Positions 7,690 to 58,893 of a DNA stretch of 64,000 bases are shown here, one piece after another (position 1 is the stretch's first letter; each line of letters starts with the position of its first letter). The notes below the pieces were generated by a model. That model saw only the letters and a program-made list of their open reading frames with translations, was not told the DNA's origin and made no database searches. The DNA comes from an uncultured Candidatus Saccharibacteria bacterium (GTDB lineage Bacteria > Patescibacteriota > Saccharimonadia > Saccharimonadales > Saccharimonadaceae). The stretch spans positions 1,223 through 65,222 of the forward strand of contig CAZXEG010000001.1 of the NCBI GenBank assembly GCA_964639835.1. The letters are read 5' to 3'. The position numbers and the translations under genes are program-made.

Positions 7690-8823
7690 ATGAAATTAAC
7701 TTCAACACCGAAACAAGATGGGTTCTACATGCCATCGGAGCTGGCGCCACATAAATGTACGTGGCTACTATGGCCAGAGCGACCAGATAACTGGCGCGGA
7801 GGGGCGAAACCGGCGCAGAAGGCGTTTCGGCAAGTAGTGGAAACAATTGCAAAATACGAACCGGTGGTACTGGGCGTGAACCAATCGCAGTATGCGCACG
7901 TTCTGGGTATGAATATGAAAAATGTGTCGGTAGTGGAAATATCGAATAATGATTCGTGGATACGGGATACTGGCGCGACGATGGTGGTGAATGATAAGGG
8001 TGAGATGCGAGCGGTAGATTGGGGTTTTAATGGCTACGGTGGACTAGTAGATGGTATTTATTTCCCGTGGGATCTAGATGATATGATTGCGGCAAAAATG
8101 GCGAACATTGAGGGTGTAGATAGATACCGAGCGGAGGATTTCGTGTTGGAAGGCGGTTCGATTCACTCGGATGGTGAGGGAACGCTACTCGTAACCGAAG
8201 AAACTTTGTTGTCGGAAGGGCGGAATCCAGGAATGACGCGCGAAGAAATTGAGGCGAAATTGATAGAATATACGGGATGTGAGAAAGTTTTGTGGTTGCC
8301 ATATGGCGTATATAAGGATGAAGATACAAACGGCCACGTGGATAATATTTGTCAATTTGTGGCGCCTGCGAAAGTGGTTTTGGCCTGGGAGGATGACGAA
8401 TCGGATCCGCAATATGAACGTTCGAAAGCGGACCTTGAGTATTTGGAATCAGTAACGGATGCGAAGGGGCGGAAGTTGGAAGTGCATAAAATTCACGTGC
8501 CGCGAGTGGTGACGATTACAAAAGAAGAGTCGGAGGGGGTGGATGTAGTGGAGGGGACGTTCCCGCGGAATGAAGGCGATAGACTGCCGGCGTCGTATGT
8601 GAATTATTATAATTGCAACGGGGCGATTATCTTGCCGATATTTAATGATCCGTATGATGCAGATGCGGTAAGGGTTTTGAAGGAATTGTTCCCGGATCGA
8701 GTGATCGAGCCGATTTATGCAAGGGAAATTCTATTGGGTGGGGGCAATATACATTGTATCACGCAACAGGTTCCAAATGGGACTTTCTTTGGGAAAGAAA
8801 GTCCCAACGAAAGAAACCAGTAA
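7690..8823 (+). CDS. aguA: Agmatine deiminase (peptidylarginine deiminase superfamily)
   Basis: WPERPDNWR, DSWIRD, LEGGSIHSDGEG, TNGHVD, GGGNIHCITQQ with catalytic Cys. Confidence 0.95.
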   Translation: MKLTSTPKQDGFYMPSELAPHKCTWLLWPERPDNWRGGAKPAQKAFRQVVETIAKYEPVVLGVNQSQYAHVLGMNMKNVSVVEISNNDSWIRDTGATMVVNDKGEMRAVDWGFNGYGGLVDGIYFPWDLDDMIAAKMANIEGVDRYRAEDFVLEGGSIHSDGEGTLLVTEETLLSEGRNPGMTREEIEAKLIEYTGCEKVLWLPYGVYKDEDTNGHVDNICQFVAPAKVVLAWEDDESDPQYERSKADLEYLESVTDAKGRKLEVHKIHVPRVVTITKEESEGVDVVEGTFPRNEGDRLPASYVNYYNCNGAIILPIFNDPYDADAVRVLKELFPDRVIEPIYAREILLGGGNIHCITQQVPNGTFFGKESPNERNQ

Positions 8824-8867
8824 GAAATTAAAGTCAGGCACATGTCCTGACTTTAATTTTGATTATA
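8778..8867 (+). repeat. Two-hairpin repeat family A, copy 1
   Basis: TGGGACTTTCTTT-ggg-AAAGAAAGTCCCA, linker ACGAAAGAAACCAGTAAG, AAATTAAAGTCAGG-cacatgt-CCTGACTTTAATTT, TGATTATA. Confidence 0.85.
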
Positions 8868-8868
8868 A

Positions 8869-8895
8869 CATCTTCTCGGCTTTGCCGAGAAGATG
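8869..8895. terminator. Hairpin between convergent aguA and gpmI
   Basis: catcttctcggc-ttt-gccgagaagatg 12-bp perfect stem. Confidence 0.6.
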
Positions 8896-8898
8896 GGG

Positions 8899-10485
8899 TT
8901 ATTTGAGTTTGATGAGAGAGGGTTGCCAGGAGGCGGGGTGGTCGTGGTAGCCGAGGAGAGTGGCGAGGGTGGAGGCGAGGTTGGCGAGGCCGGGGTGGGG
9001 CAGGTTGGCGAGGTCGTAGAAAACGCGGTTTTTGGTGTTGTCGTAGAAAATGCAGGGGACTTGGTTTACGGTGTGGGAAGTCTTTTCGTTGCCGTCGGCA
9101 TCGAGGAGCTCTTCGGCGTTGCCGTGGTCGGCGATGATGACTAGGAGGCCCTTTTTCTGGTCGATGGCTGTGGCGAGACGGGCGAGGGAAAGGTCGATGG
9201 CTTCCATGGCTAAAATGGTGGCGCCGATGTCGGCGGTGTGGCCGACCATGTCGCCGCCGGGGAAATTGAGACGGATGAATTTGTAATTGTCGAGGTTTTT
9301 AATAACGGCATCGGTGATTTCGGCGGTTTTCATCCAGGGGCGGGTTTCGAGGGGCTCGGTATCGGAAGTTATTTCGATGAATTCTTCGCCGGTGGATTTG
9401 TCGTAACTGTTGCCGTTCCAGTAATAGGTGACGTGGCCGAATTTGACGGTTTCGGACACGGCGAGCTGAGAAACGCCACGCATGCTAAGGAAGCGACTTA
9501 AGGTCTCGCGGACGGTGAGGGGCTGGACCAGACGATGCTCGGGGACGTGGGTGTTTGAATTATACTCGGTCATGCCGACGAAATAGACGTCGTCTGGGGT
9601 GTAATTGCCGCGGTCGAAATAAGGGAAGTCCCAGTAGGTAAAGGCTTGGGCGATTTCGATGGCACGGTCGGCGCGGAAGTCGAAGTAGATGAGGGCGTCG
9701 CCCTTTTTTACGAGGCCGATGGGGCGGTCCATGTCGTCAACGATGACGAAAGGCTCGAGGTTTTGGTCCTGGACGTCGGGAGCGATGCGATGGAGGATGT
9801 TTAGAGCCTCCTCGGGAGTACGGAAGTAGAAGTCGGCTTCGCCTCGTACCATCATGTCAAAACCGCGTCTTACGACATTCCAATCGTTTTCGTAGCGATC
9901 GGCGACGCAAACCATACGACCGCCGCCGGAGGCGATTTTGATGTCGGCATTGTCAAATTTGCGAGCGAAATTTTCGAAGCGTTGGATGTAGTTTTCGGCG
10001 CTGAAGGGGTCGACGTCGCGACCGTCAAAGATGGCGTGGACGCGAATGCGGGTGACGCCGTCGTTTACGGCTTTGGTAATCATCTGTTCGAGGTGAGCGA
10101 TATGGCTGTGAACGCCACCGTCGGAAAAAATACCAGCAAAATGCAAAGTACCGCCGTTTAAAGCTTTGGTAATGGCGGTACGCCAAGATTCGGAACCCCA
10201 GACTTCGTTTGAATCAAAGGCGGCGTTGATACGGGCGATGCCGTGCTTTAGGATCTGCCCGGAACCCATGGTGGTGTGGCCGACTTCGCTGTTGCCCATC
10301 TGGCCGGCAGTAAGGCCAACGGCTTCGCCGGAGGCATCGAGCGCAACGTGAAGATAATCTTTGGCAGCTTTCCCAAGAAAGGGCGTGCGTGCCCGGCTGA
10401 CTGCGTTACCTGGCCCATCTGGCGCTAGGCCCACCCCATCTAATATTGCGAGCACCACAGGCCCATCAAACTGTAGTCTATCCAT
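8899..10485 (-). CDS. gpmI: 2,3-bisphosphoglycerate-independent phosphoglycerate mutase
   Basis: AILDGVG, GQMGNSEVGH, SDGGVHSH, DFRADRA, DMVGHT, ADHGNAE; start at MDRLQF, 6 nt after TATAAT. Confidence 0.95.
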   Translation of the reverse strand: MDRLQFDGPVVLAILDGVGLAPDGPGNAVSRARTPFLGKAAKDYLHVALDASGEAVGLTAGQMGNSEVGHTTMGSGQILKHGIARINAAFDSNEVWGSESWRTAITKALNGGTLHFAGIFSDGGVHSHIAHLEQMITKAVNDGVTRIRVHAIFDGRDVDPFSAENYIQRFENFARKFDNADIKIASGGGRMVCVADRYENDWNVVRRGFDMMVRGEADFYFRTPEEALNILHRIAPDVQDQNLEPFVIVDDMDRPIGLVKKGDALIYFDFRADRAIEIAQAFTYWDFPYFDRGNYTPDDVYFVGMTEYNSNTHVPEHRLVQPLTVRETLSRFLSMRGVSQLAVSETVKFGHVTYYWNGNSYDKSTGEEFIEITSDTEPLETRPWMKTAEITDAVIKNLDNYKFIRLNFPGGDMVGHTADIGATILAMEAIDLSLARLATAIDQKKGLLVIIADHGNAEELLDADGNEKTSHTVNQVPCIFYDNTKNRVFYDLANLPHPGLANLASTLATLLGYHDHPASWQPSLIKLK

Positions 10486-10507
10486 GTTGTGATTATAGCA
10501 CAAGGAA

Positions 10508-10540
10508 TCAAAATAGTCCACCCGTGGTGGACTATTTTGA
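10508..10540 (-). terminator. Terminator of the 10550-10756 gene
   Basis: tcaaaatagtccac/gtggactattttga 14-bp perfect stem. Confidence 0.65.
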
Positions 10541-10549
10541 CCTTAAAAC

Positions 10550-10756
10550 TTAGGCTTTCTTCTTGAGGGTCAAGAAACCGTTGCGAGGATTCTCGCAGAC
10601 CATGCGGTCAGCTGGAAGGTCACATGGAGTGCCTTTGCCGCCGTTGGCGTCTTTGGTGAAGAAATAGATAGTTTGTTTTTTGCCACCACGCAAAGTCACT
10701 TCAGACTTGTGAAGATAGTATTTGATCCCTTTACCGTTGGTGTGTTCGTAAGCCAT
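10550..10756 (-). CDS. Small basic hypothetical protein (68 aa)
   Basis: AAGGAGG RBS, TTGACA-17-TAAGAT promoter (10817-10789) and own terminator. Confidence 0.8.
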   Translation of the reverse strand: MAYEHTNGKGIKYYLHKSEVTLRGGKKQTIYFFTKDANGGKGTPCDLPADRMVCENPRNGFLTLKKKA

Positions 10757-10853
10757 TTTAGACTTCCTCCTTAAGTTAGTATATTTTTATCTTATGATTC
10801 TGGAGGAAAAATGTCAAGGGGTTTTTCGCTATTTTTTGAAAAAAGTGGAGATT

Positions 10854-11576
10854 TTAGACAAATAACAGGGAAACCCTAAGCACGATAAAAATGACAAAAC
10901 GAATGATAATTACAACGATGACAAGCAAAGTTAGAAGTAACATAAAGCCGGTGAGGGTGGGGGCCCAGATGGGCGAAGCATAGTTGTGGCGATAAAGTTC
11001 AGTGGAAGGTAACTTGGCGATGATGGTATCTTGGATTTCGGCGGCGGAAGGATATTTATTAATCTCGGTCATCATGCAGTTGATAAAGTTAACGTCGTCC
11101 CAGGTCCAGCCGTTTGCGAGAGCGGCGGCTTTGCAGGTGGCGCCGGCTTCACCGTAGATATTGCCGTTGGGATTGTTGTCGGAAGTGAGGGATTTTTCGG
11201 CTTCGTCTAGGGCCTGGCGAGCGGCGCGGAGGTATTGATGCTCAAGGTAGAACGGGCCGGTGCCGAAAGTAACTTTTTGGATGCCGTTGTCGTCGACGAC
11301 GTTGATGACGATGTTTGAAAAGACGAATTCTTTTAGTGCGATGAGGGCGGTTTTTAGCTCGTCGTCGATTTGCTCTGTTTCTTCTAGCGTAGCGTTTTCG
11401 CTGATTTTGGCGTCGATGGCGAGGACTTGGTCGCGAAGCTTGGTCATTTTGATGTGATCTTGACGCATGAGCGAAGCATCAATAAAACCGAGCGGAATCA
11501 AAAGTAAAATTAACACCCAAGTTTTGATGCGGGCGTGGCGTAATTTCCGAAGTAGTTGTTTGATCTTGCCACCCAT
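10854..11576 (-). CDS. Hypothetical membrane protein with N- and C-terminal TM segments
   Basis: Start moved to MGGKIK because the longer ORF overlaps tRNA-Ile; two hydrophobic stretches. Confidence 0.75.
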   Translation of the reverse strand: MGGKIKQLLRKLRHARIKTWVLILLLIPLGFIDASLMRQDHIKMTKLRDQVLAIDAKISENATLEETEQIDDELKTALIALKEFVFSNIVINVVDDNGIQKVTFGTGPFYLEHQYLRAARQALDEAEKSLTSDNNPNGNIYGEAGATCKAAALANGWTWDDVNFINCMMTEINKYPSAAEIQDTIIAKLPSTELYRHNYASPIWAPTLTGFMLLLTLLVIVVIIIRFVIFIVLRVSLLFV

Positions 11577-11586
11577 AATAATTTCG

Positions 11587-11663
11587 TGGTAGGGATGCCT
11601 GGACTCGAACCAGGGACACTGCGTGTATAAGACGCATGCTCTAACCAACTGAGCTACATCCCC
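11587..11663 (-). tRNA. tRNA-Ile(UAU)
   Basis: Minus strand anticodon arm TGCGT-CTTATAC-ACGCA gives U34 A35 U36; AGCTCAGTTGGTTAGAGC D-arm, GGTTCGAGTCC T-arm, A73, CCA. Confidence 0.9.
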
Positions 11664-11704
11664 ACTTATATATATGATAACACAAAAAATGGTATAATAG
11701 AAAC

Positions 11705-12127
11705 ATGAGCGGGTTAAAATGGCGACAGGCGAAGTATAAATTGACGCACGACTATCTTTCGATCGAGAACGTGGCGCTTTTGGTGGCGGTGGTACTATGC
11801 CTAGTGTGGACGTATAACTCAATTACGTCGATGAGTAAAAACTGGGAGCTTTCGGAAAGGTTGAACGCCGAAAAGAAGAATTTGGAACTTTTGAAAATGG
11901 AAGTGGAGACGGCGGAGCTGACGAATGAATACTATAAAAGTGAGGAATACCAGGAGCTTGCGGCGCGAAAATTGGCAAATAAACAACTTCCGGATGAACA
12001 TATGGTGTACTTGCCGGAAAATTCGGAAACAGCCAAGAACAAACATAAGCAGGAAGAAGTGACGCTTTCAGAAGAGAAAAAAGATTACTCGAATTTTGAA
12101 AAGTGGATGATGTTTTTATTCCCGTGA
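11705..12127 (+). CDS. FtsB/FtsL/DivIC-like septum formation protein
   Basis: Short N-terminus, one TM, coiled coil, EYQELAARKL...LPDEHMVYLP resembling DivIC. Confidence 0.6.
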   Translation: MSGLKWRQAKYKLTHDYLSIENVALLVAVVLCLVWTYNSITSMSKNWELSERLNAEKKNLELLKMEVETAELTNEYYKSEEYQELAARKLANKQLPDEHMVYLPENSETAKNKHKQEEVTLSEEKKDYSNFEKWMMFLFP

Positions 12128-12139
12128 TATAATTGTTAT

Positions 12140-12961
12140 ATGAATAAGCGTAAGCGTAGGCTGGTCGGGTTTACTTTGGTGGAGGTTTCGTTGTTTTTGG
12201 CGGTGACGGCGGTGCTGTTTGTGGGGATAATTACGGCGACGCAGGGTTCGATATGGCAGCAGAGGTTTTACGATTCGGTACAGAGCTATGCGGAGTTTTG
12301 GCGGGGGATTTACTCGCAGGTTTCGAATCCGCAGACGGTGGGGCAAGGGAACACGGAGACGGCGATTTATGGGAAATTGGTGGTGTTTGGGGAGTCGGTG
12401 GATTTGCAAGGCAACAGTGTGAATGCGACGACGGACGCGAATTATGGGCAACAGATTTTTATTTACGATGTGGTGGGGGATGCGACGGGGACGGGGACCG
12501 GTAGTGTTGTGGAAATGCTGAGCGGGTTGAATGCAAATGTGATCATGAAAGTCCTAGATAGCAGAGGCAATACGGAGTGGATACCGGCGGGGGAAGTGAC
12601 GGATTACGTACCGAGATGGGGGGCGGAGATAGAGACGACGACGCAAGCGGAGCCGTTTACGGGCTCGATTTTGGTGGTGAGGCACCCGCAGTCGGGAACG
12701 ATTAATACGCTGGTGAGCAAGGAAGTGATACAAGTTAACGGAGCTTTGCAGAGCTACAACGGTAGTACTGGAGTGATGGAGAGGCTTTTGAAGTCTAAAT
12801 TGGATAGTTTTGAGCCGAGTGAGATTGATTTTTGCTTGAATCCGTATGGGTATGGGGTGGCGACCGATAACCGGCGCGATATTAGGCTGGCGAAAAATGC
12901 GCGAAATTCGTCGGGAGTGCAGATAATTGATTTGGATAGCGACGAAAATAGGTGTCGATAG
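12140..12961 (+). CDS. Type IV minor pilin-like protein
   Basis: Class III signal G|FTLVE followed by a hydrophobic helix. Confidence 0.85.
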   Translation: MNKRKRRLVGFTLVEVSLFLAVTAVLFVGIITATQGSIWQQRFYDSVQSYAEFWRGIYSQVSNPQTVGQGNTETAIYGKLVVFGESVDLQGNSVNATTDANYGQQIFIYDVVGDATGTGTGSVVEMLSGLNANVIMKVLDSRGNTEWIPAGEVTDYVPRWGAEIETTTQAEPFTGSILVVRHPQSGTINTLVSKEVIQVNGALQSYNGSTGVMERLLKSKLDSFEPSEIDFCLNPYGYGVATDNRRDIRLAKNARNSSGVQIIDLDSDENRCR

Positions 12962-12986
12962 ATGGTGCTTATGGTATAATGGAAGT

Positions 12987-14057: not shown

Positions 14058-15412
14058 GCAAAAAAATGCGCAGAGGGTTCAGGCGGGGGGTGGCGTCGTT
14101 TTATATCGTGGCGTTTTCGACGTTGATTTTGACGGTGGTGTCGGTGGGGTTTGCAACGGTGATTTTGTCGGAAGTGACGAGGACGGCGAATGATGATTTG
14201 TCACAATCGGCGTATGATTCGGCGTTGGCGGGGATTGAGGATGCGAAATTGGCGTATTCGAATTACCGAAGGTGCAGGGAGCGGACGTCGGTTGCCAGGG
14301 AGCCAAACGGGGACGGAGTGGTGACTTGTGAAGAGATTATTTACTGGATGCAGAATCCGGATTGCTATATGGTGGGGAGGATTTTGGGGAGGCTATCGGA
14401 CAATAGTGAGCCGGGAGAGGTGAAGGTGGGTGATGTGATACAGACTAGTAGTGGTAGCACGACTGACGAGATGAACCAGGCGTATACTTGCGTGGAAATT
14501 CGGACGGAGCAGGAAGATTACCGGGCGGGGTTGTCGTCGGCGAACTCGAATCGGATGATAGCGTTGAATTTTGATAAGATATACGGGGAAAATGGTGAGC
14601 GGGTGACCGCAGGAATGATAGAGGAAATAAGGTTGAGCTGGTATTTGACGCGGGAGGATATGAATTTGAATTTTGCGAATTACTTGACGACGTCTTCGGG
14701 GAGAGTGGCGTTTTTGCCGGCAAAAAGCGTGCAGGTGGCGTCGCCACCGGCGATAGAATTGCAACTGGTGCAAACCGCGAATAACTTTAGACTGACGGAT
14801 TTTGACCGGACGGTGAATGGGCAAACGGACAGGGCGACGCTGTTTCTGGTGCCGATTGGGAGGACTAACGCTGCGAACGATGCCACTGCCAAGGCGATCG
14901 CAGGAAGGAGTGGCAATAGCTACGATGGAGTTTATAAAGGCGATGACACGGAGGGGAATCCGGTGAATCTGGTTTCGAGCGCGCAGGTCGCAAAGACGAA
15001 CGATCGGTATATCAGCAATAAGCCGTTTGGCCTGTATTGTAGTGAGGAGGCGACGCAAGAGTTTACATGCTCGGTGAGGGTGCAACTACCGGAGGCAGTG
15101 GGTGGTGGACGGAGTAATGAGACGTTTATGTTTGTGCTGAATTTGCCGTATGGGCAACCGGATACGGAGTTTGCGATGGAATTTTATTATCGAGCAGCGG
15201 ATGGGAATTTGAAGCGGACGACGATTCGTGATGCACAGGTGGTGGTGGACTCGACGGGGCGGACGAATGATTTGGTTAGGCGGGTAGAAGTGCGACTAGA
15301 GACATCAGATACATCGTTCGCGTACCCGATGTATGCGTTGCAACTTCTAGGGAACGAAGGTACTCTGACTAAAGATATGACGGTAACGAGTGAGTATAAT
15401 TTTTATAAATAA
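14054..15412 (+). CDS. PilX-like minor pilin
   Basis: RRG|VASFYIV lacking Glu5, DLSQSAYDSALAGIEDA PilX-type helix. Confidence 0.75.
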   Translation: MSKKMRRGFRRGVASFYIVAFSTLILTVVSVGFATVILSEVTRTANDDLSQSAYDSALAGIEDAKLAYSNYRRCRERTSVAREPNGDGVVTCEEIIYWMQNPDCYMVGRILGRLSDNSEPGEVKVGDVIQTSSGSTTDEMNQAYTCVEIRTEQEDYRAGLSSANSNRMIALNFDKIYGENGERVTAGMIEEIRLSWYLTREDMNLNFANYLTTSSGRVAFLPAKSVQVASPPAIELQLVQTANNFRLTDFDRTVNGQTDRATLFLVPIGRTNAANDATAKAIAGRSGNSYDGVYKGDDTEGNPVNLVSSAQVAKTNDRYISNKPFGLYCSEEATQEFTCSVRVQLPEAVGGGRSNETFMFVLNLPYGQPDTEFAMEFYYRAADGNLKRTTIRDAQVVVDSTGRTNDLVRRVEVRLETSDTSFAYPMYALQLLGNEGTLTKDMTVTSEYNFYK

Positions 15413-15475
15413 GTATTGACTTTTTGTGATGAGTGGTGTATAATAGAGAGTGTGGTGATACCACAATGCTTATGT

Positions 15476-15552
15476 CGTGGGGTAGAGCAGCCTGGTAGCT
15501 CGTTTGGCTCATAACCAAAAGGTCGCTAGTTCAAATCTAGCCCCCACAACCA
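15476..15552 (+). tRNA. Initiator tRNA-fMet(CAU)
   Basis: C1xA72 mismatch, A11, GAGCAGCCTGGTAGCTCG D-arm, CTCATAA loop, CCA. Confidence 0.92.
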
Positions 15553-15588
15553 AGTCTCAGGGTTCTGAAGGACTATAAAAGATTCAGG

Positions 15589-15634
15589 GCGAAAATGGAC
15601 CCACATTACCCCCCTAATGTGGGTCCATTTTCGC
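15589..15634. repeat. Perfect 20-bp inverted repeat
   Basis: GCGAAAATGGACCCACATTA-cccccc-TAATGTGGGTCCATTTTCGC. Confidence 0.85.
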
Positions 15635-15638
15635 GAAG

Positions 15639-15725
15639 TGGACTTTTCTTGAAAGAAAAGTCCAGCAAAAGAAACCAGTATGAAATCAAAATGAGGCACA
15701 TGTCCTCATTTTGATTTTGATTATA
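15639..15725 (+). repeat. Two-hairpin repeat family A, copy 2
   Basis: TGGACTTTTCT-tgaa-AGAAAAGTCCA, GCAAAAGAAACCAGTATG, AAATCAAAATGAGG-cacatgt-CCTCATTTTGATTT, TGATTATA. Confidence 0.85.
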
Positions 15726-17016
15726 AAATATTTTCAATAGAAGTGAGGTGGCGGTTGATGGTGAGGGAGAAGGTATAGCTGAGGGCGGAGGCGGAGGGGC
15801 TGATAATGGAAGCGCCGAGGAGATGGCCGGTGTGGTCGGTCATGAGTTTGGCCAGGCCAGTGGTGTGAAGACGAGGGAGGGTGGCTAGATTGATGATAGT
15901 GCGCTTGGCTTTGAGGTCGCGAGCGAGGAGGTCGCGTTCGTTCAAGCCGACGATGGCGATTTCGGGGTTGGTGCGAATAACACGAGCGATGGAGCTGTAC
16001 CGAGGGGAAGTTTTGAGCTTGCCTGCTAGGTTGCTAGCGAGGACGTGGGCTTCTTCTAGGGTGCGCTCGGGGGAGAAATTTTCTTCGGTGTCTACGGAGC
16101 TGCTGAGGCAGTAGATGTTTCTTGCGGAAGAGGTGAGGTATTTGTCGGCGATGATGCCGGCGCGTTTGTATTTGACGCCGGCGTTGTCGAGGCCGAGGCT
16201 TTCGACGTCGGGGACGGAGCCGGTGGCGAGGACAATGCAGTCAACGCGGACCATTTTTTCCTGGGCTTTGTTAGTGAAAATGGCGATTTTGGAGGCTTCG
16301 TCGCTACTGACGGCGGTGAGGCGGGAGTTATCTAGGATGGTGATGTCGAGATCCTCGGTAAAATGTCGCTTTATAGTGTCGGAGATTTCTTTGTCTTCCT
16401 TGGGAAGGAGGCGGCTCATGCGCTCCATGATGATGACTTTAGCGCCAAGCTCGGCGTAAAAACAAGCGATTTCGACACCGGTAGGGCCACCGCCGACGAC
16501 GAGGGCACACTCGGGAATGCGACGGATTCTGAAGGCGGTATCGGGGGTGAGGTAGTTGACGTGGTCGAGGCCGGAGATTTCGGTGGTTTTGAGCTTTCTT
16601 TTAGTAGCGATGATGAAGTTGTCGGCTGAATATTCAGAGTTACCGATGGCGACGGAATGGTCGCTGAGGAAATGGGCAGGGCCGTTTAAGAGCTCTACGC
16701 CTTTTTCGGCGAGGCTTTTAATGCGTGATTCTCTGGTGGCGGTGAAAACGCGGTCTTGATGGGCGACGAGAGTAGGAAGGTTATAATGGAGGGGCTGGCC
16801 GTGGACGGCAGGTTCCTGCAGTATATTATAATAGTGGTGAGAAAAATCTAGACTGAGGTTCCTAGCGATGTCGTAGGTGCTGAAGTCGGTGTAGCCGGCG
16901 GTGGGGGCTTCGGCGATGGCGAGGCGCTTGCCGGATTTGGCTAGTGCTAAGGCTAGCGAATAGCTGGCGGGGTGGCCGCCGAGGATGATATAATTGTAGT
17001 CGTATTTACTGCTCAT
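15721..17016 (-). CDS. Pyridine nucleotide-disulfide oxidoreductase homolog (Lpd/MerA-like) lacking the redox cysteines
   Basis: VVGGGPTGVEIA NAD site, VLATGSVP, interface domain; GGTCLNxGC position reads GYTDFSTYD. Confidence 0.75.
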   Translation of the reverse strand: MSSKYDYNYIILGGHPASYSLALALAKSGKRLAIAEAPTAGYTDFSTYDIARNLSLDFSHHYYNILQEPAVHGQPLHYNLPTLVAHQDRVFTATRESRIKSLAEKGVELLNGPAHFLSDHSVAIGNSEYSADNFIIATKRKLKTTEISGLDHVNYLTPDTAFRIRRIPECALVVGGGPTGVEIACFYAELGAKVIIMERMSRLLPKEDKEISDTIKRHFTEDLDITILDNSRLTAVSSDEASKIAIFTNKAQEKMVRVDCIVLATGSVPDVESLGLDNAGVKYKRAGIIADKYLTSSARNIYCLSSSVDTEENFSPERTLEEAHVLASNLAGKLKTSPRYSSIARVIRTNPEIAIVGLNERDLLARDLKAKRTIINLATLPRLHTTGLAKLMTDHTGHLLGASIISPSASALSYTFSLTINRHLTSIENIL

Positions 17017-17018
17017 CT

Positions 17019-17273
17019 TTATATAATTTTATCATAGATTTTGTAAACGTAAGCCAAATCTCGGTGGTATTTTTGGAGGGATTTGGTGACGGCGCGAGTG
17101 AGGTCGTTTTTGGTGATGATTTTTTTCTGGGCAAGGGAGTGCTTGGCATCTTTGATAGCGCGGGCGATAAAATCATTGGCGGCGCCGGAAGGGATTTCGA
17201 GGCCACGAGCGTGGAATTTGAGGGTTTTTTCGATTTCCTGCCAAGTTTTTTCGGTGATTTCTTGAGTTTTCAT
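17019..17273 (-). CDS. Hypothetical protein (84 aa)
   Basis: Tightly packed co-oriented ORF overlapping the upstream gene by 4 nt. Confidence 0.7.
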   Translation of the reverse strand: MKTQEITEKTWQEIEKTLKFHARGLEIPSGAANDFIARAIKDAKHSLAQKKIITKNDLTRAVTKSLQKYHRDLAYVYKIYDKII

Positions 17274-48772: not shown

Positions 48773-48787
48773 TAGGAAAGGATTTTT

Positions 48788-50959
48788 ATGGAAATTATCA
48801 ACCCTAATGGCAAAAAGACGATTCAGGTTTCGACTGAATGGCTGGGGCGGACTTTGACACTAGAGGTGAATAGAGTGGGGTTTCGGTCGACTTCGTCGGT
48901 GCTCGTGACCTATGGCGATACGGTGGTTTTGGGCTCGGTGGTAGTGGGGACGAAGCCGGTGGTGCAGGACTTTTTCCCATTGTCGATTGATTACGAAGAG
49001 AAGTTTTATGCGGCGGGGAAGATTTCGTCGTCGAGGTTTATTAAGCGGGAGGGGAAGCCGGCGGATGAAGCGGTGCTGGTCGGGCGACTGATCGACCGAC
49101 CGATCCGGCCGCTGTTCCCGAAGGGGTATCGGCAAGAGGTACAGGTGGTGTGTACGGTGCTTTCTATGGATCCGACGTTTCGGCCGGATTGCGTGGCGAT
49201 GATTGCGGCGTCGTCGGCTCTCATGAATGCGGGGGTACCGTTTGATGGGCCGGTGGCGGGGATTCGGATTGGAAGGATTTCTGGTGAGTTTAAGGGATTC
49301 TTGAGCCCGGCGGAGCGCCAGGTGTCGCCGCTTGACCTTGTAGTAGCGTGTAAAGACGGTAAGGTGATGATGGTGGAGGCTGGCGCGAATGAAGTGCCGG
49401 AGGACACGATTATCGAGGCGATGCATTGGGCAGTGAAGAATGTGCAGCCGGCGCTAGATTTGCAAAGGCAACTAGCGAAAATTGTGGATGCTCCGGAACA
49501 GGAATACGAGTTGGTGTTGCCGACCGAGGAGATTATTGAGGAAGTGGCGGCTTGGACTGAGGGGAAATTTGGTTCGCAGATACGGGGGAATGTGATGGAG
49601 CGGTCGCAGATGCTGGACGATCTCAAATATGCGATGCATGATGAAATGGCCTTGAAACACGGTGAGGGGGCGACGGATGATGACAAGGTGAAATGGTATG
49701 ATGAGAATTTGCGGGATGTGTATGACCAGGCGTTTGAGCTGACGGTGTTTAAGGAAGTGAGGCGGGGGATTATCGAAGAGGGGGTGCGGCCGGATGGGCG
49801 GAAGCTCGAGGAAGTGCGGCCTCTCTCCTCGCAAGTTTCGATTTTGCCGAGGGTGCACGGGTCGTCGCTGTTTACACGAGGGGTGACGCAGGCGATGAAT
49901 ATTGTGACTTTGGCGCCGCTCTCGTATGCGCAGGAAGTGGACACGATGGAAGTGACGGATGGCAAGCGGCGGTATATGCACCACTACAATGCGCCGTCTT
50001 ATACGGTGGGGGAGTGTGGTCGGATGGGCTCGCCGGGACGACGTGAGATCGGGCATGGGTACTTGGCGGAGCGGGCGCTTTTACCAGTGCTACCGTCTGA
50101 GGAAGAGTTCCCGTACGCGATTCGCTCGGTGACGGAGATTATGTCGCAGAATGGGTCGACTTCGATGGCGGCGACTTGTTCGTCTTGTATGGCCTTGATG
50201 GATGCGGGGGTGCCTTTGAAACGGCCGGTGTCGGGGGTGGCGATGGGGCTGATGGTGGACGTGCCGAAGGGTGAGCCGATTGAGGCTTCGGATATCGACA
50301 AAGCGTATGTTTTGACTGATTTAATGGATGCGGAAGATTTTGCCGGAGATATGGACTTTAAGGTAACTGGTACGACGGAGGGGGTGACGGCGCTCCAGAT
50401 GGACATGAAAGTGCATGGGCTACCGGTAGAGATTCTTGAGAAGGCGATCAAGCAATCGCATGAGGGGCGGATGTTTATCTTGAAGCACTTGGTGAGCGTG
50501 ATTGCGGGGCCGCGAGATAAGATTTCGGATTTGGCACCAAGGATTGAGAAAGTGAAGATTTCGAAAGACAAGATTGGGACGGTGATCGGCAAGGGTGGCG
50601 AGACGATTAACAAGATTACTTCGGAAACGGGGGCGGAAGTGGATATTGACGAAGATGGGCTGGTGACGATTGCCGGAACGGATGGCGAGTCGATTCGGAA
50701 GGCGGTTGAGTGGGTGAAGGCCCTAACGGAAGAGCCGGAGGTGGGGAAAATCTACGAAGGTAAGGTGGTGACGATTAAGGACTTCGGGGCGTTTGTGAAC
50801 ATTTTGCCGGGGATTGACGGGATGTTGCACATTTCGCAGATTACGGATAAGAAGCGGTTGAAGTCGGTGGAGGAAATGCTCCATGTAGGGGACATGGTGA
50901 AGGTGAAGCTGGTGGCGATTGACCAGAAGGGGAAGTTGTCGCTGTCGATGATTTATTAG
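48788..50959 (+). CDS. pnp: Polyribonucleotide nucleotidyltransferase
   Basis: RLIDRPIRPLFP, HGSSLFTRG, RREIGHG, NGSTSMA, GDMDFKV, KH and S1 domains. Confidence 0.97.
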   Translation: MEIINPNGKKTIQVSTEWLGRTLTLEVNRVGFRSTSSVLVTYGDTVVLGSVVVGTKPVVQDFFPLSIDYEEKFYAAGKISSSRFIKREGKPADEAVLVGRLIDRPIRPLFPKGYRQEVQVVCTVLSMDPTFRPDCVAMIAASSALMNAGVPFDGPVAGIRIGRISGEFKGFLSPAERQVSPLDLVVACKDGKVMMVEAGANEVPEDTIIEAMHWAVKNVQPALDLQRQLAKIVDAPEQEYELVLPTEEIIEEVAAWTEGKFGSQIRGNVMERSQMLDDLKYAMHDEMALKHGEGATDDDKVKWYDENLRDVYDQAFELTVFKEVRRGIIEEGVRPDGRKLEEVRPLSSQVSILPRVHGSSLFTRGVTQAMNIVTLAPLSYAQEVDTMEVTDGKRRYMHHYNAPSYTVGECGRMGSPGRREIGHGYLAERALLPVLPSEEEFPYAIRSVTEIMSQNGSTSMAATCSSCMALMDAGVPLKRPVSGVAMGLMVDVPKGEPIEASDIDKAYVLTDLMDAEDFAGDMDFKVTGTTEGVTALQMDMKVHGLPVEILEKAIKQSHEGRMFILKHLVSVIAGPRDKISDLAPRIEKVKISKDKIGTVIGKGGETINKITSETGAEVDIDEDGLVTIAGTDGESIRKAVEWVKALTEEPEVGKIYEGKVVTIKDFGAFVNILPGIDGMLHISQITDKKRLKSVEEMLHVGDMVKVKLVAIDQKGKLSLSMIY

Positions 50960-51038
50960 ACTTTCTTTGAAAAAGAAAGTCTAGCAAAGAAACAATGAAG
51001 TCAAAAGTCACAGAGCCCGACTTTTGACTTTGATTATG
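50957..51038 (+). repeat. Two-hairpin repeat family A, copy 3
   Basis: TAGACTTTCTTT-gaa-AAAGAAAGTCTA, GCAAAGAAACAATG, AAGTCAAAAGTC-acagagccc-GACTTTTGACTT, TGATTATG. Confidence 0.8.
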
Positions 51039-51064
51039 ACGGGAAATATAGTATAATTATAGAG

Positions 51065-53002: not shown

Positions 53003-53069
53003 ACTTTTTGTAGTTTTTGCAGTTTTTGTGGTATAATAAGCATAAGAATAATAAAAAATAGGAATTTTT

Positions 53070-53921
53070 ATGCAACCGAATCAACCAAATCAACCAAGTG
53101 CGCCGGGTGGGGCGACGATGCCGGGGATGGGTCCGGCAACGAATCAAGCAGTGCCTGGTGGAGCGGATCCGCTGGTGGCAGGGGCGACGGCTTCTGCTGG
53201 TACGCCACCGATGCCGCCAGTAACGCCATCGGCAACACCTCCGGTGACGTCGACTGCTGCGCCGACAGCGCCTTTGAACGCTAAATCGCCGGTGGATTCT
53301 GTGAGTGCGCCGAGTGACATTTCGTCGTTGATTGATGAAGAGTTGGCGAAGCCGGTGGCGACGCCAGCGGAAGTTGCACCGATGTCAGTGGAGCCGAAAA
53401 AGAAGGCGAAGACGAACGTTTGGATGATTGGTATGATTGTCGCTTCCGTGGTGGCGCTAATTGGCATTGTGTTTGGCGTGATGATGATGGTGCAGAAGAA
53501 CAATTCGGAGACGAGTTTGAATAAGCAGATTTCGACGCTCAAGAGCCAGGTGACGCAGCTACAAAATCAAATCGACGAGGAACCGGAGACGGTAGAAGTT
53601 AATCCAGCTGGGTATGTTTACATCGGCGAGTGGGGGATTAAAATCGCGACGACTGCGCGAAACTATACCTTTAGCAATGGTGTGCTGAACTTCTTGTTCG
53701 ACAACGGGGCTAATGTGACCATCACCAGGATACTGACATCGGAAATAGCGTGTGATGACACAGAAGGCGCGGAGTGTCCGCAGTATAATTTTGAGATTAG
53801 TGACTACAGCTACCTGGTGGCCATTAACGGTGATGTGCCGGCGGACATCAGCTCTGAGTTAGTAAGTAGCGCGAACTACTCGCTGATTTACGTAGCAGGA
53901 GAAAACGAAGTCGAAGGATAA
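53070..53921 (+). CDS. Membrane protein with Pro-rich N-terminus, TM and coiled coil
   Basis: Composition and hydrophobic segment; terminator at 53932-53961. Confidence 0.72.
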   Translation: MQPNQPNQPSAPGGATMPGMGPATNQAVPGGADPLVAGATASAGTPPMPPVTPSATPPVTSTAAPTAPLNAKSPVDSVSAPSDISSLIDEELAKPVATPAEVAPMSVEPKKKAKTNVWMIGMIVASVVALIGIVFGVMMMVQKNNSETSLNKQISTLKSQVTQLQNQIDEEPETVEVNPAGYVYIGEWGIKIATTARNYTFSNGVLNFLFDNGANVTITRILTSEIACDDTEGAECPQYNFEISDYSYLVAINGDVPADISSELVSSANYSLIYVAGENEVEG

Positions 53922-53931
53922 AGAGATAATC

Positions 53932-53961
53932 AAAAAAGAGCCTCAAATGGGGCTCTTTTTT
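53932..53961 (+). terminator. Intrinsic terminator
   Basis: aaaaaagagcctc-aaat-ggggctctttttt. Confidence 0.75.
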
Positions 53962-53977
53962 GTGATATAATGATGAT

Positions 53978-54493
53978 ATGAAGAAAAGATGGCTGGTAGC
54001 TACGGCGGTACTAATGGTGCAGTTTTTGGTGGTAAATGGTGGTACGAGGGCGGAAGAAGCGGAACTTTCGGAAGAGCGGCGGAGCGCGATAGTGGATCAT
54101 TGCGAGACGATACGGGGTGATCTGAGAAATTTGCAACGGATGGATTCGCGGACGCGGGTGTATTTGGGGCGGTATTACGAGACGATTTTGACGAAATTTG
54201 TGACGCCATTAAATTTACGGTTGGTGGAGAATAACCTTTCGGATGTGAAATTGATCGAAAATCAAACTAATTTGGTGACAAAGCGGAGTGATTTTGTGGA
54301 TGATTTTACTAAATACAGTCAGACTCTCGAGGAGCTAATCGGGATAGATTGCAAGGCCGAGCCGGAGAGGTTTTATGAACGGCTGGTGGTGACGCGAGAA
54401 AGACGAGCGAAGTTGAATCGGGACGCGGAGAAAATGCGAGATTTGACGGGCGAACAAGTAACGCTGGTAAAGGAGTTAAGAGATAGATTATGA
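53978..54493 (+). CDS. Secreted helical hypothetical protein
   Basis: Signal peptide, two Cys; ATG 6 nt after TATAAT. Confidence 0.75.
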   Translation: MKKRWLVATAVLMVQFLVVNGGTRAEEAELSEERRSAIVDHCETIRGDLRNLQRMDSRTRVYLGRYYETILTKFVTPLNLRLVENNLSDVKLIENQTNLVTKRSDFVDDFTKYSQTLEELIGIDCKAEPERFYERLVVTRERRAKLNRDAEKMRDLTGEQVTLVKELRDRL

Positions 54494-54819
54494 CAAAGGG
54501 AGCGCGGAATTTGGTGATTTTGGGGGTGTCGGCGACGATTGTGGCGTTGGGACTAACGGCTACGTCTTTGGCGATCTATCATTATTCGGGGGATATTTAT
54601 CTGGATCGGTCACGGCCAGGGTATTTGCCGGATAAGGCGGAAGTGGAGAAGGAAGAAGAGACGCTAGAGGGAGCGTACAGTTTTGACAAGAGTGGAGTGG
54701 TAACTGAAGAGGCGTTGACCGAGTATCTGGAGAAGATAGAAGTGGAGGTTAGGGCGCTAGACGATTACCAGGAGCCATTTAGTGCGGAAGCTTTGAGCGA
54801 CGAGAGGCTGGGAATCTAG
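54490..54819 (+). CDS. Membrane-anchored hypothetical protein
   Basis: ATGA overlap; N-terminal TM. Confidence 0.7.
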   Translation: MTKGARNLVILGVSATIVALGLTATSLAIYHYSGDIYLDRSRPGYLPDKAEVEKEEETLEGAYSFDKSGVVTEEALTEYLEKIEVEVRALDDYQEPFSAEALSDERLGI

Positions 54820-54845
54820 CGAGTTTGTGGTATAATGGGGGTATT

Positions 54846-55676
54846 ATGAGAATTTCAAAAGCAATTATTCCGGTAGCGGGGTGGGGTACGCGGAGATTAC
54901 CAATTACGAAGGTTGTAGAAAAATCAATGCTTCCGGTGGGGAACCGGCCGCTGGTGGATTATTCGGTGCAAGAGTTGATTGATGCGGGAGTGAAGGATAT
55001 TTATATGGTGGTGTCAAATGTGGAGCCGTGCCAGGTGCGGGCGTTTTATCAAGACAATTTGGCACTGAATTTGTATCTGAAAGAGAGAGGTAAAGAGGAT
55101 AAGCTGGAAAAGGCAAAGACTTTGCCGGATGATGTGACGATTCACTACGTGGCGCAGGACCCGTCGGATAAGTATGGGACGGCGGTGCCAGTGGCGTTAG
55201 CGGTGGAAGAATTTGGGATTGACGAGCCTGTGCTGGTGTTTATGGGGGATGATTTTATCTGGAACCCGGGCGGGGAGACTTCGGCGGAAGCCTTGATTAA
55301 ATCAGTGCGAAGTGAAGACGAGTCGGCACTATTTGCGATTGATAAGCCGTATGAGGCGCTTCTCAACGGTGGGGCGCTGACGATTAAGGATGAGAGAGTG
55401 GTGAAAATTACGGAAAAGCCGAAGCCAGAGCAAATTACGGGACTAACGAGTGTGAGTAAGTATATTTTGTCGCCGAGGATGCTTGAGGAGATCGTGGAAT
55501 ATGTGCATGCGAATGATTTTGGGCCGGCAGATCAAGAATATATGATTACGGACCCGTTTGCGAGTTATATTGCAAAGGGCGGGGTGATGCGAGTAGCAAG
55601 AACTGATGGCGAATATCTAGATGGTGGCACGGTAGAGGGGTGGGTGCACGCAAACGTGGTGGTGGCGGGTAGCTAA
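54846..55676 (+). CDS. galU: UTP--glucose-1-phosphate uridylyltransferase-like nucleotidyltransferase
   Basis: AIIPVAGWGTRRLPITK..KSMLPV, YGTAVPV, FMGDD, EKPKPE. Confidence 0.75.
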   Translation: MRISKAIIPVAGWGTRRLPITKVVEKSMLPVGNRPLVDYSVQELIDAGVKDIYMVVSNVEPCQVRAFYQDNLALNLYLKERGKEDKLEKAKTLPDDVTIHYVAQDPSDKYGTAVPVALAVEEFGIDEPVLVFMGDDFIWNPGGETSAEALIKSVRSEDESALFAIDKPYEALLNGGALTIKDERVVKITEKPKPEQITGLTSVSKYILSPRMLEEIVEYVHANDFGPADQEYMITDPFASYIAKGGVMRVARTDGEYLDGGTVEGWVHANVVVAGS

Positions 55677-55690
55677 GAAAGTGCCGAAAA

Positions 55691-55717
55691 TTAGCACTCG
55701 GGGGTTGAAAGTGCTAA
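55691..55717 (+). promoter_or_regulatory. CIRCE operator at the clpC-clpP promoter
   Basis: TTAGCACTC-N9-AAGTGCTAA (1 mismatch) overlapping TTGAAA -35; TATAAT at 55728. Confidence 0.88.
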
Positions 55718-55742
55718 TTACTTGTGATATAATAGGGGTAGT

Positions 55743-58232
55743 ATGCAAGAAGAATTTAGTGAAATAATGAACCATCTGTCGGAAAATGCGCGTTTTGCGC
55801 TTCAGAAGGCAGATTATTACAGTAAACGTTATAATAACGGTTATATGGGGACGGAACATTTGCTCCTAGGGGTGATGGCAATGGATACTTCGACAGGGGC
55901 AAAAATGATCCGGGATGAGGGGGCGACGCTTGAGGAGATTGAGAAGGCGCTTAATAAAGTAGCGGTAGAGGTTCCGGGGTCGGATATGGCGATGATGTCG
56001 CTGTCGGAGTCGGTGATTTTGACGCTTCGGATGGCACAGAATTACGTGAACGAAGAGGGGCTTAGCGTAATCGGGACGGAGCATATATTATATGCATTGC
56101 TTTCCCAACCGAATTCGCGGGCGTCGTTGATACTGATGGGGCTTAATGTTGACACTGAGAAAGTGTTGGATTTGATTGAAGATTTGGTGGAGGAGCAGAC
56201 GAAAGACGAGAAAGCCAAGGCAGAGAAAGCTAAGTATGTGAAAAACCCAGGGCTGAAGTTTTTGGCAAGGTATGGGAAGGATTTGACGGAAGAGGCTAAG
56301 AGTGGCAAACTAGACACGGTGATTGGGCGAGAGCAAGAGATTGAGCGAGTGGTGACGGTTTTGTCACGACGGACGAAGTCGAATCCGGTGTTGATCGGCG
56401 AGGCGGGGGTCGGAAAGACGGCAATTGTGGAGGGGCTGGCGACGCGGATGGTGAAGAACGAAGTGCCGGGGGCTTTAATTGGCAAGCATATTTGGCAGGT
56501 AGATCTTTCGGGTCTAGTGGCAGGGACGAAGTTTCGGGGTGAATTTGAGGAGAGGCTGAAGGGGATAATCGATGAAGCGACGGGGGACGAGTCGATACTG
56601 CTGTTTATTGACGAGCTACACCTTTTGTGTGGGGCTGGATCGGGTGAGGGGACGATGGACGCGGCAAATATTTTGAAGCCGGCGCTAGCGCGGGGACAGC
56701 TGAATTTGATTGGCGCGACGACCTTGGATGAATATCGGAAGTCGATTGAAAAAGACAAGGCGTTGTCGCGGCGGTTCCAGACGGTGATGGTGGAGGAGCC
56801 GTCAAATACGGTGACACTGAGAATATTGAAGGGAGTGAAGAAGTATTACGAAAATCACCATGGCGTAGTGATACCGGATGAGGTGATAGAAACCGCAATT
56901 GTAATGGCGCAGAGGTATATTAATGATAGGTTTATGCCAGATAAGGTGATTGATATTATTGACGAGGCAGCAGCGATTTGTAAGGTGGCGGCGGACAAGA
57001 AGGGTGGGTCGAAGTATAAAAAGATGAAAATTGAAGCGGCAGGGTTGGAGGAAAAAATTGAGACGGCGGCGGAAGCAGAAGATTATGAAAAAGCCGCAGA
57101 GTACAAAACTGAGCTGGCCAGACTGGAAAAGGAGATTAAGAAGTTAGAAAAAGCGGGGGCAAAGAAAGAGGCTAAGGCGCCGGTTCTCTCGGAGGAGAAT
57201 TTAGCGAGGGCGGTGTCACTGAAGACCGGTATTCCGGTATCGAAAGTGCATGGTTCGGAAATGAAGATGCTGATGGAGCTTGAGTCGCACATCAAAGAGT
57301 CGATCGTAGGGCAAGATGAGGCGGTGTCGGCGGTGGCAAAGGCGATCCGGCGAGGGCGGAGCGGAATTGCGGATCCGAGAAGGCCGATTGGTTCGTTTAT
57401 CTTTATGGGGCCAACTGGCGTAGGGAAAACGGAGCTTGCGCGTGTAATAGCAAGAGAAGTATTTGGTGGCGAAAATGCCTTGATCAAAATCGACATGAGT
57501 GAGTTTGGCGAGAAACACAATGTTTCGCGACTAGTGGGGGCGCCGGCGGGCTACATTGGCTATGACGACGGCGGGAAGCTAACTGAGGCGGTGCGAAGGC
57601 GGCCGTATTCGGTGGTGTTGTTTGACGAAATCGAGAAGGCGCACCCGGATGTGTTTAATTTGTTACTACAAATCTTGGAAGATGGGGTGCTGACGGATGG
57701 GCAAGGTAATAAAATTAAGTTTAATAACACGATTGTGATTTTGACTTCGAACCTCGGTTCGGCGGAAATGTACCGCGAATCGGAATTAGGCTTTACTGCG
57801 AAAACCGCAAAAGACAAGAAGGCACTTCTTGAAGAGTACGAGGAGAATAAATCGTATGCGATGAAAGCGCTCAAGAAGGCAATGCGACCGGAGCTGATTA
57901 ATCGGCTAGATTCAGTGCTGGTGTTCCACGCTTTGACGCGGAAGAATATTGAGCGGATATTTGACAACCTGATTAACGATTTGAAGAAGCGATTGGCGAC
58001 GAAGGGTATAGGGCTAAAAATTGATGATAAGGCCAAAGATTATTTGATCGAGAAAGGTTATGATTCGAAGAACGGGGCACGACCGATGCGAAGATTAATT
58101 GAGGATGAGGTAGAATCGCTACTTTCGGAAGGGATTATTTCGGGTGAATTTGTAAAGGGCGATATTCCAGAAGTAAAACTTGTGGGTGGTAAGTTAAAAT
58201 TATTAAGAGAACCAGTAAGAAAGGAGAAATAA
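55743..58232 (+). CDS. clpC: ATP-dependent Clp protease ATPase subunit
   Basis: ClpN repeats, GEAGVGKT, GATTLDEYR, UVR-like middle domain, GPTGVGKT, LFDEIEKAHPDV. Confidence 0.93.
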   Translation: MQEEFSEIMNHLSENARFALQKADYYSKRYNNGYMGTEHLLLGVMAMDTSTGAKMIRDEGATLEEIEKALNKVAVEVPGSDMAMMSLSESVILTLRMAQNYVNEEGLSVIGTEHILYALLSQPNSRASLILMGLNVDTEKVLDLIEDLVEEQTKDEKAKAEKAKYVKNPGLKFLARYGKDLTEEAKSGKLDTVIGREQEIERVVTVLSRRTKSNPVLIGEAGVGKTAIVEGLATRMVKNEVPGALIGKHIWQVDLSGLVAGTKFRGEFEERLKGIIDEATGDESILLFIDELHLLCGAGSGEGTMDAANILKPALARGQLNLIGATTLDEYRKSIEKDKALSRRFQTVMVEEPSNTVTLRILKGVKKYYENHHGVVIPDEVIETAIVMAQRYINDRFMPDKVIDIIDEAAAICKVAADKKGGSKYKKMKIEAAGLEEKIETAAEAEDYEKAAEYKTELARLEKEIKKLEKAGAKKEAKAPVLSEENLARAVSLKTGIPVSKVHGSEMKMLMELESHIKESIVGQDEAVSAVAKAIRRGRSGIADPRRPIGSFIFMGPTGVGKTELARVIAREVFGGENALIKIDMSEFGEKHNVSRLVGAPAGYIGYDDGGKLTEAVRRRPYSVVLFDEIEKAHPDVFNLLLQILEDGVLTDGQGNKIKFNNTIVILTSNLGSAEMYRESELGFTAKTAKDKKALLEEYEENKSYAMKALKKAMRPELINRLDSVLVFHALTRKNIERIFDNLINDLKKRLATKGIGLKIDDKAKDYLIEKGYDSKNGARPMRRLIEDEVESLLSEGIISGEFVKGDIPEVKLVGGKLKLLREPVRKEK

Positions 58233-58814
58233 ATGAAAAATTATTTAGTACCAACGGTAGTAGAAGAAACTAACCGCGGGGAGAGGGCGTATGATATTTA
58301 TTCGCGCCTTTTGAACGACCGGATTGTGTTTTTGGGGGAAGATGTGAATGCACATACAGCGAATTTGGTGGTGGCGCAGCTTTTGTATTTGGCGCATGAA
58401 GATCCGAAGAGACCGATTAAACTGTATATTAATTCGCCTGGTGGGTCGGTGTATGACGGGCTAGCGATTATTGACACGATGAACTACATCGAGCCGGATG
58501 TGGAGACGATTGGGATTGGGCTTCAGGCTTCGATGGGGGCAATGCTTTTGTCGTCGGGGGCGAAGGGCAAGCGGTATTGCTTGCCGAACGCGCGGGTGAT
58601 GATTCATCAGCCTTCGTCTGGTACGGAAGGCAAGATTACCGACCAGGAGATCATGCTGAAGGAAGGCATATTCCTTAAGAAACGGCTGGCAGAGATTTTT
58701 GCCAAGAATACCGGGAAATCATTGGCGACGGTCGAGAAAGACATGGACCGGGATAATTGGATGAGCGCTGAGGAAGCACTTGAATATGGTATTATAGACA
58801 AAATTATAGCTTAA
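58233..58814 (+). CDS. clpP: Clp protease proteolytic subunit
   Basis: [36 protein letters not shown]. Confidence 0.97.
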
Positions 58815-58893
58815 ACTTTCTTTTTAAAGAAAGTTCGGCAAAGAAATGATGAAAATTGAAATGGAAATGAATTCCATTTCAATTTTTGTTGTA
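58814..58893 (+). repeat. Two-hairpin repeat family A, copy 4 (most diverged)
   Basis: AACTTTCTT/AAGAAAGTT, CGGCAAAGAAATGATG, AAAATTGAAATGGAA-atgaa-TTCCATTTCAATTTT, TGTTGTA. Confidence 0.7.

Follow-up and report, generated by a model that had tools for sequence, protein, structure and literature searches.

What is the sequence that recurs four times, with constant linkers and ever-changing stems, at the 3' ends of genes in one stretch of a Saccharibacteria genome? The stretch, hereafter the window, comprises 64,000 nucleotides (nt) from an uncultured bacterium of the ruminant gut that its PNPase relatives identify as Candidatus Nanosyncoccus; the assembly (745 kb in 53 contigs, 50.7% G+C) is 94% complete. 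The recurring sequence is a repeat of about 95 bases with two modules: module A, consisting of hairpin A and a purine-rich linker, and module B, consisting of hairpin B. We propose that it is probably a dispersed DNA repeat with quick turnover, in which a triplex-type pseudoknot folds on one strand and is joined to a hairpin that is a putative terminator at gene ends.

The initial annotation, made from the letters of the window, placed copies at 8778, 15639, 50957 and 58814, all on the + strand, and all four are confirmed there. The hairpin A core, ACTTT(T)CTT / AAG(A)AAAGT, is present at every site, and every linker holds AAAGAAA or AAAAGAA. Hairpin B is perfect, with 13–15 base pairs (bp) in the window copies, and is followed by a T-rich tail; copies 1 and 2 have the loop CACATGT in common. 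The upstream genes are also as described, namely aguA (PAD_porph), tRNA-Met, pnp and clpP. RNA folding resolves each window copy into exactly two hairpins, with z-scores from −5.8 to −6.8. Two points had to be revised. Four copies is too low a count, and TGTTGTA, previously read as the end of copy 4, does not belong to the element; it comes from the promoter already in place before the next gene, and a sister species has it at the corresponding empty site.

A profile search of the host genome finds about 30 oriented copies. Twenty-seven are full, three break off within the hairpin B loop and lead at once into a full copy, and two consist of module B only. A covariance model (R1), built on the alignment A2 of the 27 full copies, also matches 49 of 120 other Nanosyncoccus species, with 1 to at least 33 copies per genome. 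The full element was found by R1 in none of 149 genomes from about 120 other genera of the order. Further copies are thus abundant both in the genome and in its relatives, and so is covariation. In A4, which aligns 102 copies drawn from more than 30 species, all 25 pairs of hairpins A and B are changed on both sides, 97.8% of the cells pair, and none of 500 shuffles equals this. The conserved parts are the foot of hairpin A, the linker, the apex of hairpin B, which takes one of two forms (GGCRCATGTCC or GGAAGTGAATTCC), and the tail, TTTTGATTATGA. The earlier view of a modular family that is more than a simple terminator holds.

The central feature of module A, which the initial annotation overlooked, lies in the linker. 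A pyrimidine 5' arm is followed by a purine 3' arm and then by a purine tract; this tract mirrors the 3' arm and is hence the parallel complement of the 5' arm. This rule is kept in more than 12 distinct arm variants: the 5' arm CTTTCTTT occurs with the tract AAAGAAA, CTTTTCTT with AAAAGAA, CTCTTTTCC with AGAAAAGG, CTTTTTTCC with AAAAAAGG, CTTTTTCT with AAAAAGA, and CTTTCTTTC with AAAGAAAG. Among 90 copies with asymmetric arms, a mirror fits the linker better than a direct repeat in 72 and worse in 2, with 16 ties; counted by unique arm, the result is 21 to 1. A linker that directly repeats the 3' arm can thus be rejected. When arms and linkers were re-paired at random, the observed match was never reached in 10,000 permutations. 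Antiparallel Watson–Crick pairing between linker and 5' arm was rejected as well, since it reaches only 81.7%, below every shuffle.

The alignment A4, whose model holds no pairs between arm and tract, shows the same relation column by column. The eight parallel column pairs are 97.5–99.2% complementary, with changes on both sides at 8 of 8, and none of 500 shuffles equals this. If the partner is slid along, the match falls to 51.5–74.3% at the four most variable positions and still reaches up to 97.4% at the four that vary little. Two antiparallel purine tracts matched like with like, one of them paired to pyrimidines, follow the sequence rule of a purine-motif triple helix. The class II purine-motif intrastrand triplex is defined by three successive domains, of which the first, on the 5' side, is pyrimidine, the second purine and the third reverse-Hoogsteen (Holder et al. 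2015, PMC4666352). The mirror tract and the three-way covariation place module A among the intrastrand triplex repeats. We propose that module A is a class II unit that would fold on one strand only, with the mirror tract lying antiparallel along the purine arm, A with A–T and G with G–C. The dense three-way covariation, seen in more than 12 arm variants, more than 100 copies and many lineages, speaks for selection acting on the three-stranded fold as such.

A second helix appears to close this fold. Within Nanosyncoccus, GG in the loop of hairpin A accompanies CC after the purine tract (counts 28/13/7/61, odds ratio 19, uncorrected for kinship). Distant lineages have compensatory loop and tail pairs at the same place: CTTGAT:ATCAAG, GGCAG:CTGCC, GGTCG:CGACC, GGTTG:CAACC, TGCGC:GCGCA and AAC:GTT. 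Compensation also extends to the stem foot (CTAC/GTAG, ACA/TGT, ATA/TAT and GTAG/CTAC). The helix is missing in some lineages, namely G437, G734 and one family of G421 (family 1). Where it occurs, the second helix between the loop and downstream sequence is backed by compensatory changes, which is the arrangement of an H-type pseudoknot. In many lineages, a loop–tail helix of 2–6 bp may lock module A as a pseudoknot of this type.

Module A also occurs without module B. A pattern for module A finds it alone in 7 genomes from other families of the order and in 16 of 350 other Patescibacteria genomes, several of which hold multiple copies; the reversed control pattern gives nearly none. Several distant lineages have it embedded in longer, lineage-specific repeats. 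The combination CTTTCTTT / AAAGAAA is conserved in distant families, and in distant lineages type-1 arms always go with AAAGAAA and type-2 arms always with AAAAGAA. Among the Rfam covariance models, those that match the window and the distant loci are only tRNA, rRNA and RNase P; none corresponds to the element.

The copies are also biased in orientation. The host genome has a very strong GC skew, with absolute values of 0.12 to 0.33 per contig, and the folding strand is the G-rich one at 26 of 29 host sites (90%) versus about 62% of the long open reading frames (ORFs). The rRNA genes lie on the G-rich strand as well, and 28 of the 40 tRNA genes lie on the C-rich one. An element accompanies 4 of the 12 tRNA genes on the G-rich strand versus 1 of the 28 on the C-rich strand (p = 0.02). 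The flanks of 83 copies from the genus place 69 on the G-rich and 7 on the C-rich strand; for 45 copies from the phylum the figures are 29 and 7. In the distant family G437, three copies are antisense, abutting the 5' ends of tRNA genes, and are still on the G-rich strand. Skew is usually taken to mean that the G-rich strand serves as template for the lagging strand and is exposed as a single strand while the DNA is replicated. We infer that the strand on which the fold would form is at once the sense strand of the transcript and, by GC skew, the lagging-strand template, and that a process at the level of DNA may act on this single strand to spread or lose copies.

With respect to genes, 22–23 of the 29 independent host sites start between −44 and +8 nt relative to where a co-oriented ORF, tRNA or 5S rRNA gene ends, or about 85 nt past a tRNA gene, in which case a hairpin stands between the two. 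Module B, a perfect hairpin of 12–15 bp with flanking A- and T-tracts, a G+C core of 5–7 bp and a T-rich tail, occupies the position of a terminator. The Rho RNA-binding domain was not found in the host genome (94% complete), and module B may serve as an intrinsic terminator in this Rho-less genome, because it is transcribed at gene ends. About half of the copies have an ordinary G+C-rich terminator hairpin directly 3' of them. Downstream of 5S rRNA in 27 genomes of the genus, an ordinary terminator is present in about 21 and the element in 5; in 3 or 4 of these 5 species module B is the sole hairpin after 5S, and in the host genome an ordinary terminator is also present, with the element standing between it and the 5S gene. 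In G437, module A is again found 3' of 5S rRNA and tRNA genes. The tail TTGATT often coincides with a −35 hexamer, with TATAAT 16–17 nt further on (also at C3_9791, C13_7751 and L179), and other copies run into the extended −10 element TGnTATAAT of the next gene. A riboswitch or leader of the downstream gene was ruled out because many copies face convergent genes or a further terminator, or follow tRNA or 5S rRNA genes; the same positional evidence rules out a recoding pseudoknot after stop codons.

Comparison of sites between species points to rapid change. The clpP site is filled in the host and empty in the sister species G113, where the stop codon is followed by 12 nt and then by the same TGTTATATAAT promoter. 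The tRNA-Met copy is common to both. Fixation of the element in the pnp–lepA spacer was considered and rejected, as it occupies that spacer in only 2 of 80 relatives. The aguA site is empty in G021 and G052, filled in the host and G114, and occupied by a different palindrome in G113. In the host, aguA reads 14 codons into copy 1 (8779–8823). In the 377-residue product the Pfam domain stops at residue 362, and the proteins of relatives end in ...QQ(I/V)PK(A/V), followed by the stop. The element has replaced the stop region of aguA, which therefore gains 14 element-encoded codons. The palindrome in the aguA spacer of G113 (L295, G113:C4, about 14680–14840) is about 150 nt long and reads TTATTCAAGACAATTTGTTG ... 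CAACAAATTGTCTTGAATAA; palindromic inserts seem to have a hotspot in the spacer after aguA.

Four tandems (G000:C3:9722, C6:21945 and C13:7679 in the host, and L296 at G114:C30) consist of a full copy abutting a resident one that breaks off right after CATGTC(C), within the hairpin B loop, which suggests a preferred break or insertion point. At G000:C14:3548-3657, hairpin B and its counterpart in the orthologue L173 are exact reverse complements (loop ACATGTG versus CACATGT); this is an in-place flip of the palindrome. The features of the window are collected in the table.

Table. Copies of the two-module repeat and adjoining signals, in window positions.
Feature	Position	Strand	Remarks
Copy 1, whole element	8776..8868	+	modules A and B and tail TGATTATAA; overlaps the last 14 aguA codons
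Copy 1, hairpin A	8779..8805	+	GGGACTTTCTTT-GGG-AAAGAAAGTCCC
Copy 1, mirror purine tract	8809..8818	+	GAAAGAAA, then CC able to pair with the loop GG
Copy 1, tract of AAAGAAA/AAAAGAA type	8809-8816	+	
Copy 1, hairpin B	8825..8859	+	14 bp, loop CACATGT
GC hairpin directly 3' of copy 1	8870..8894	+	ATCTTCTCGG-CTTTG-CCGAGAAGAT, read as resident terminator
Copy 2, whole element	15636..15726	+	84 nt 3' of tRNA-Met; site also filled in G113
Copy 2, hairpin A	15640..15663	+	GGACTTTTCTT-GA-AAGAAAAGTCC
Copy 2, mirror purine tract	15667..15676	+	AAAAGAAA, then CC
Copy 2, tract of AAAGAAA/AAAAGAA type	15667-15674	+	
Copy 2, hairpin B	15683..15717	+	14 bp, loop CACATGT
Copy 3, whole element	50955..51039	+	pnp–lepA spacer; pnp stop TAG is the foot of hairpin A
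Copy 3, hairpin A	50957..50983	+	
Copy 3, purine tract	50986..50992	+	AAAGAAA
Copy 3, hairpin B	50997..51031	+	13 bp, atypical loop
lepA promoter-like site	51030..51057	+	TTGATT-16-TATAAT; first hexamer is the copy 3 tail
Copy 4, whole element	58812..58886	+	3' of clpP; same site empty in G113
Copy 4, hairpin A	58814..58835	+	
Copy 4, purine tract	58840..58846	+	AAAGAAA
Copy 4, hairpin B	58852..58886	+	15 bp, loop of GAATTCC type

Two further observations concern the surroundings of individual copies. Between tRNA-Met and copy 2 (window 15589–15638) lies a 48-nt hairpin, GGGCGAAAATGGACCCACATTA - CCCCCC - TAATGTGGGTCCATTTTCGC, whose pairing is kept through several double changes in G113. Before some other host copies (G000:C6:21807-21945, C9:12102-12389, C11 and C17) there are stretches of 140–290 nt with no ORF, tRNA or Rfam match. 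Some of them end like structured RNAs (e.g., ...CTTCTGCCAAAC), and these stretches could be unannotated RNAs.

Several findings weigh against a DNA repeat that folds on one strand. The strand rule is confounded with gene co-orientation, and replication direction was inferred from skew in fragmented assemblies. Three host copies lie on the C-rich strand, two of them behind a gene or tRNA; C9 and C20 track the gene and not the skew; and tail-to-tail convergent pairs occur in G006 and G053. For module B as a putative intrinsic terminator, a simple terminator scan flags the minus strand only. Purine triplexes rich in A/T are weak. Such A/T-rich motifs are also common by chance (PMC4666352). The filled and empty sites examined show no target-site duplication and no clean boundaries. 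Finally, no mobilising enzyme was found: the host genome has neither a Y1 transposase nor a DUF559 nuclease.

The initial annotation read the copies as a REP/BIME-like single-stranded DNA (ssDNA) element or a 3' RNA structure and anticipated a Y1/HUH transposase (RAYT or IS200-like). The dispersed, modular and compensated family and its single-strand framework have stood, and the transposase has not. A REP/BIME or IS200/IS605-derived miniature element moved by such an enzyme would agree with the hairpins at both ends, the lack of target-site duplication, the presumed bias toward the lagging-strand template, and the mosaic and truncated arrays. It is nevertheless largely refuted, and we regard it as very improbable, given that Y1 transposases were found in only 7 of 121 genomes of the genus and in none of those with 11–33 copies, and that the flanks of the Y1 loci of G023, G078, G051 and G037 do not match the element (R1, E > 0.3). 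Resemblance by chance or composition among ordinary AT-rich terminators can be dismissed with near certainty. The 3'-end sites and the T-run of module B are what it would predict; however, the core pattern has 3 matches in the window versus 0.00 expected in shuffles, the covariance model reaches E-values as low as 1e-17 across many species, the stems vary around conserved loops, linker and tail, and three strands covary. Another explanation is an ssDNA signal used by the host on the lagging-strand template, for example in priming, pausing or recombination, whose position at gene ends is merely tolerated. The strand bias across genus and phylum and the motif kept in distant families are in line with it, as is the reported arrest of polymerases at purine triplexes (PMC4666352). 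We consider it improbable all the same, since sister species carry from 0 to more than 30 copies, which would be odd for a core replication signal, and most of the sampled Patescibacteria genomes have no module A.

A purely RNA element is the most serious competitor, and we consider it possible although rather unlikely. Module A would then be a triple-stranded pseudoknot of the 3' untranslated region (UTR), blocking exonucleases or aiding termination beside module B as intrinsic terminator, and the strand bias would merely mirror gene direction. Much of the positional evidence fits: the co-oriented gene, tRNA and 5S rRNA ends, the replacement of the ordinary 5S terminator in five species, the recurrence of this placement in G437, and the convergent pairs. 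On the sense strand, G–U pairs outnumber A–C mismatches by 101 to 39, and the pseudoknot architecture is like that of known RNA folds. Conversely, the preference for the G-rich strand exceeds that of the genes, tRNA genes on the C-rich strand nearly always lack the element, the antisense copies of G437 keep to the G-rich strand, and many copies stand directly before an ordinary terminator. Purine-motif triplexes are, in addition, stated not to form in RNA (PMC4666352). A bolder form of this idea, which we think unlikely, is that module A is a continuous purine–purine–pyrimidine RNA triple helix of 7–9 triples, locked by the pseudoknot and acting across Patescibacteria as a 3'-end guard or termination aid for genes, tRNAs and rRNA. 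The DNA repeat with a one-strand triplex-type pseudoknot remains the reading that we favor. Whichever is correct, the family makes the problem of triplex repeats testable, as it offers covariation, a pseudoknot helix that fixes the geometry, a strand rule combined with a place at gene ends, and Rho-less genomes. Its natural variants are a concrete set of oligonucleotides and reporters for asking whether the fold and its role belong to DNA or RNA, and the family can readily mark recent changes in the genomes of uncultured Saccharibacteria.

Among known RNA folds, the closest in outline are H-type pseudoknots in which an A-rich third strand lies along stem 1, as in the preQ1-I riboswitch, telomerase RNA and frameshift pseudoknots. 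Module A shares with them the hairpin, the A-rich strand running back along the stem and the loop helix. It differs in that stem 1 has 11–13 bp and that the third strand reproduces the purine arm at each base, with G opposite G–C. It is also a multicopy repeat at gene ends and not a 5' leader. In ENE/MALAT1, two U-rich strands clamp an A-rich strand (U with A–U), an arrangement thought to guard against 3' decay. The likeness there is a triple-stranded fold in the 3' region of an RNA; in contrast, module A has one pyrimidine and two purine strands, and so lacks the strand composition of an ENE. The REP/BIME sequences of enterobacteria resemble the element as short extragenic palindromes at gene 3' ends, with mosaic arrays, transcription in 3' UTRs and strain variation, and the tandems of truncated and full copies at C3, C6, C13 and G114:C30 are mosaic clusters of this kind. 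Unlike REP/BIME, the element has no RAYT, consists of two distinct modules, and has a mirror purine tract with three-way covariation.

The nearest relatives by design are the BoxC, PIT and TMECO repeats, which, to our knowledge, have been known for 25 years with neither a function nor a partner. The literature search found no paper on intrastrand triplex repeats in Patescibacteria, and nothing relevant on repeats of Saccharibacteria or Nanosyncoccus or on bacterial RNA triple helices at 3' ends. BoxC/PIT/TMECO are the class II triplex repeats of Hoyne et al. (2000), as summarised in PMC4666352. They are abundant, G/C-rich and of unknown function; their isolated DNA strands form the triplex, and they are tied to local genome variability (Holder et al. 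2015, PMC4666352). Like the element described here, they carry a pyrimidine, a purine and a third purine domain on one strand, the third antiparallel and matched like with like (A with A–T, G with G–C). Both are multicopy and mostly intergenic, differ in number between close relatives, are tied to local genome change and have no known partner enzyme. The sequences are distinct: the TMECO consensus, CCCTCNCCC / GGGNGAGGG, is G/C-rich and is not found in module A, which is A/T-rich (CTTTCTTT / AAAGAAAG / AAAGAAA) and thus belongs to the same class but another family. These repeats, PIT elements among them, are reported to lack terminator and promoter activity and to follow no rule of orientation (PMC4666352), whereas the Nanosyncoccus element stands directly 3' of genes and strongly prefers one strand. 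Judged on sequence, this element is an A/T-rich variant of BoxC/PIT/TMECO with a predicted triplex, and it is set apart from them by closure as a pseudoknot through the loop–tail helix, by fusion to a terminator-like hairpin and by its occurrence in Patescibacteria.

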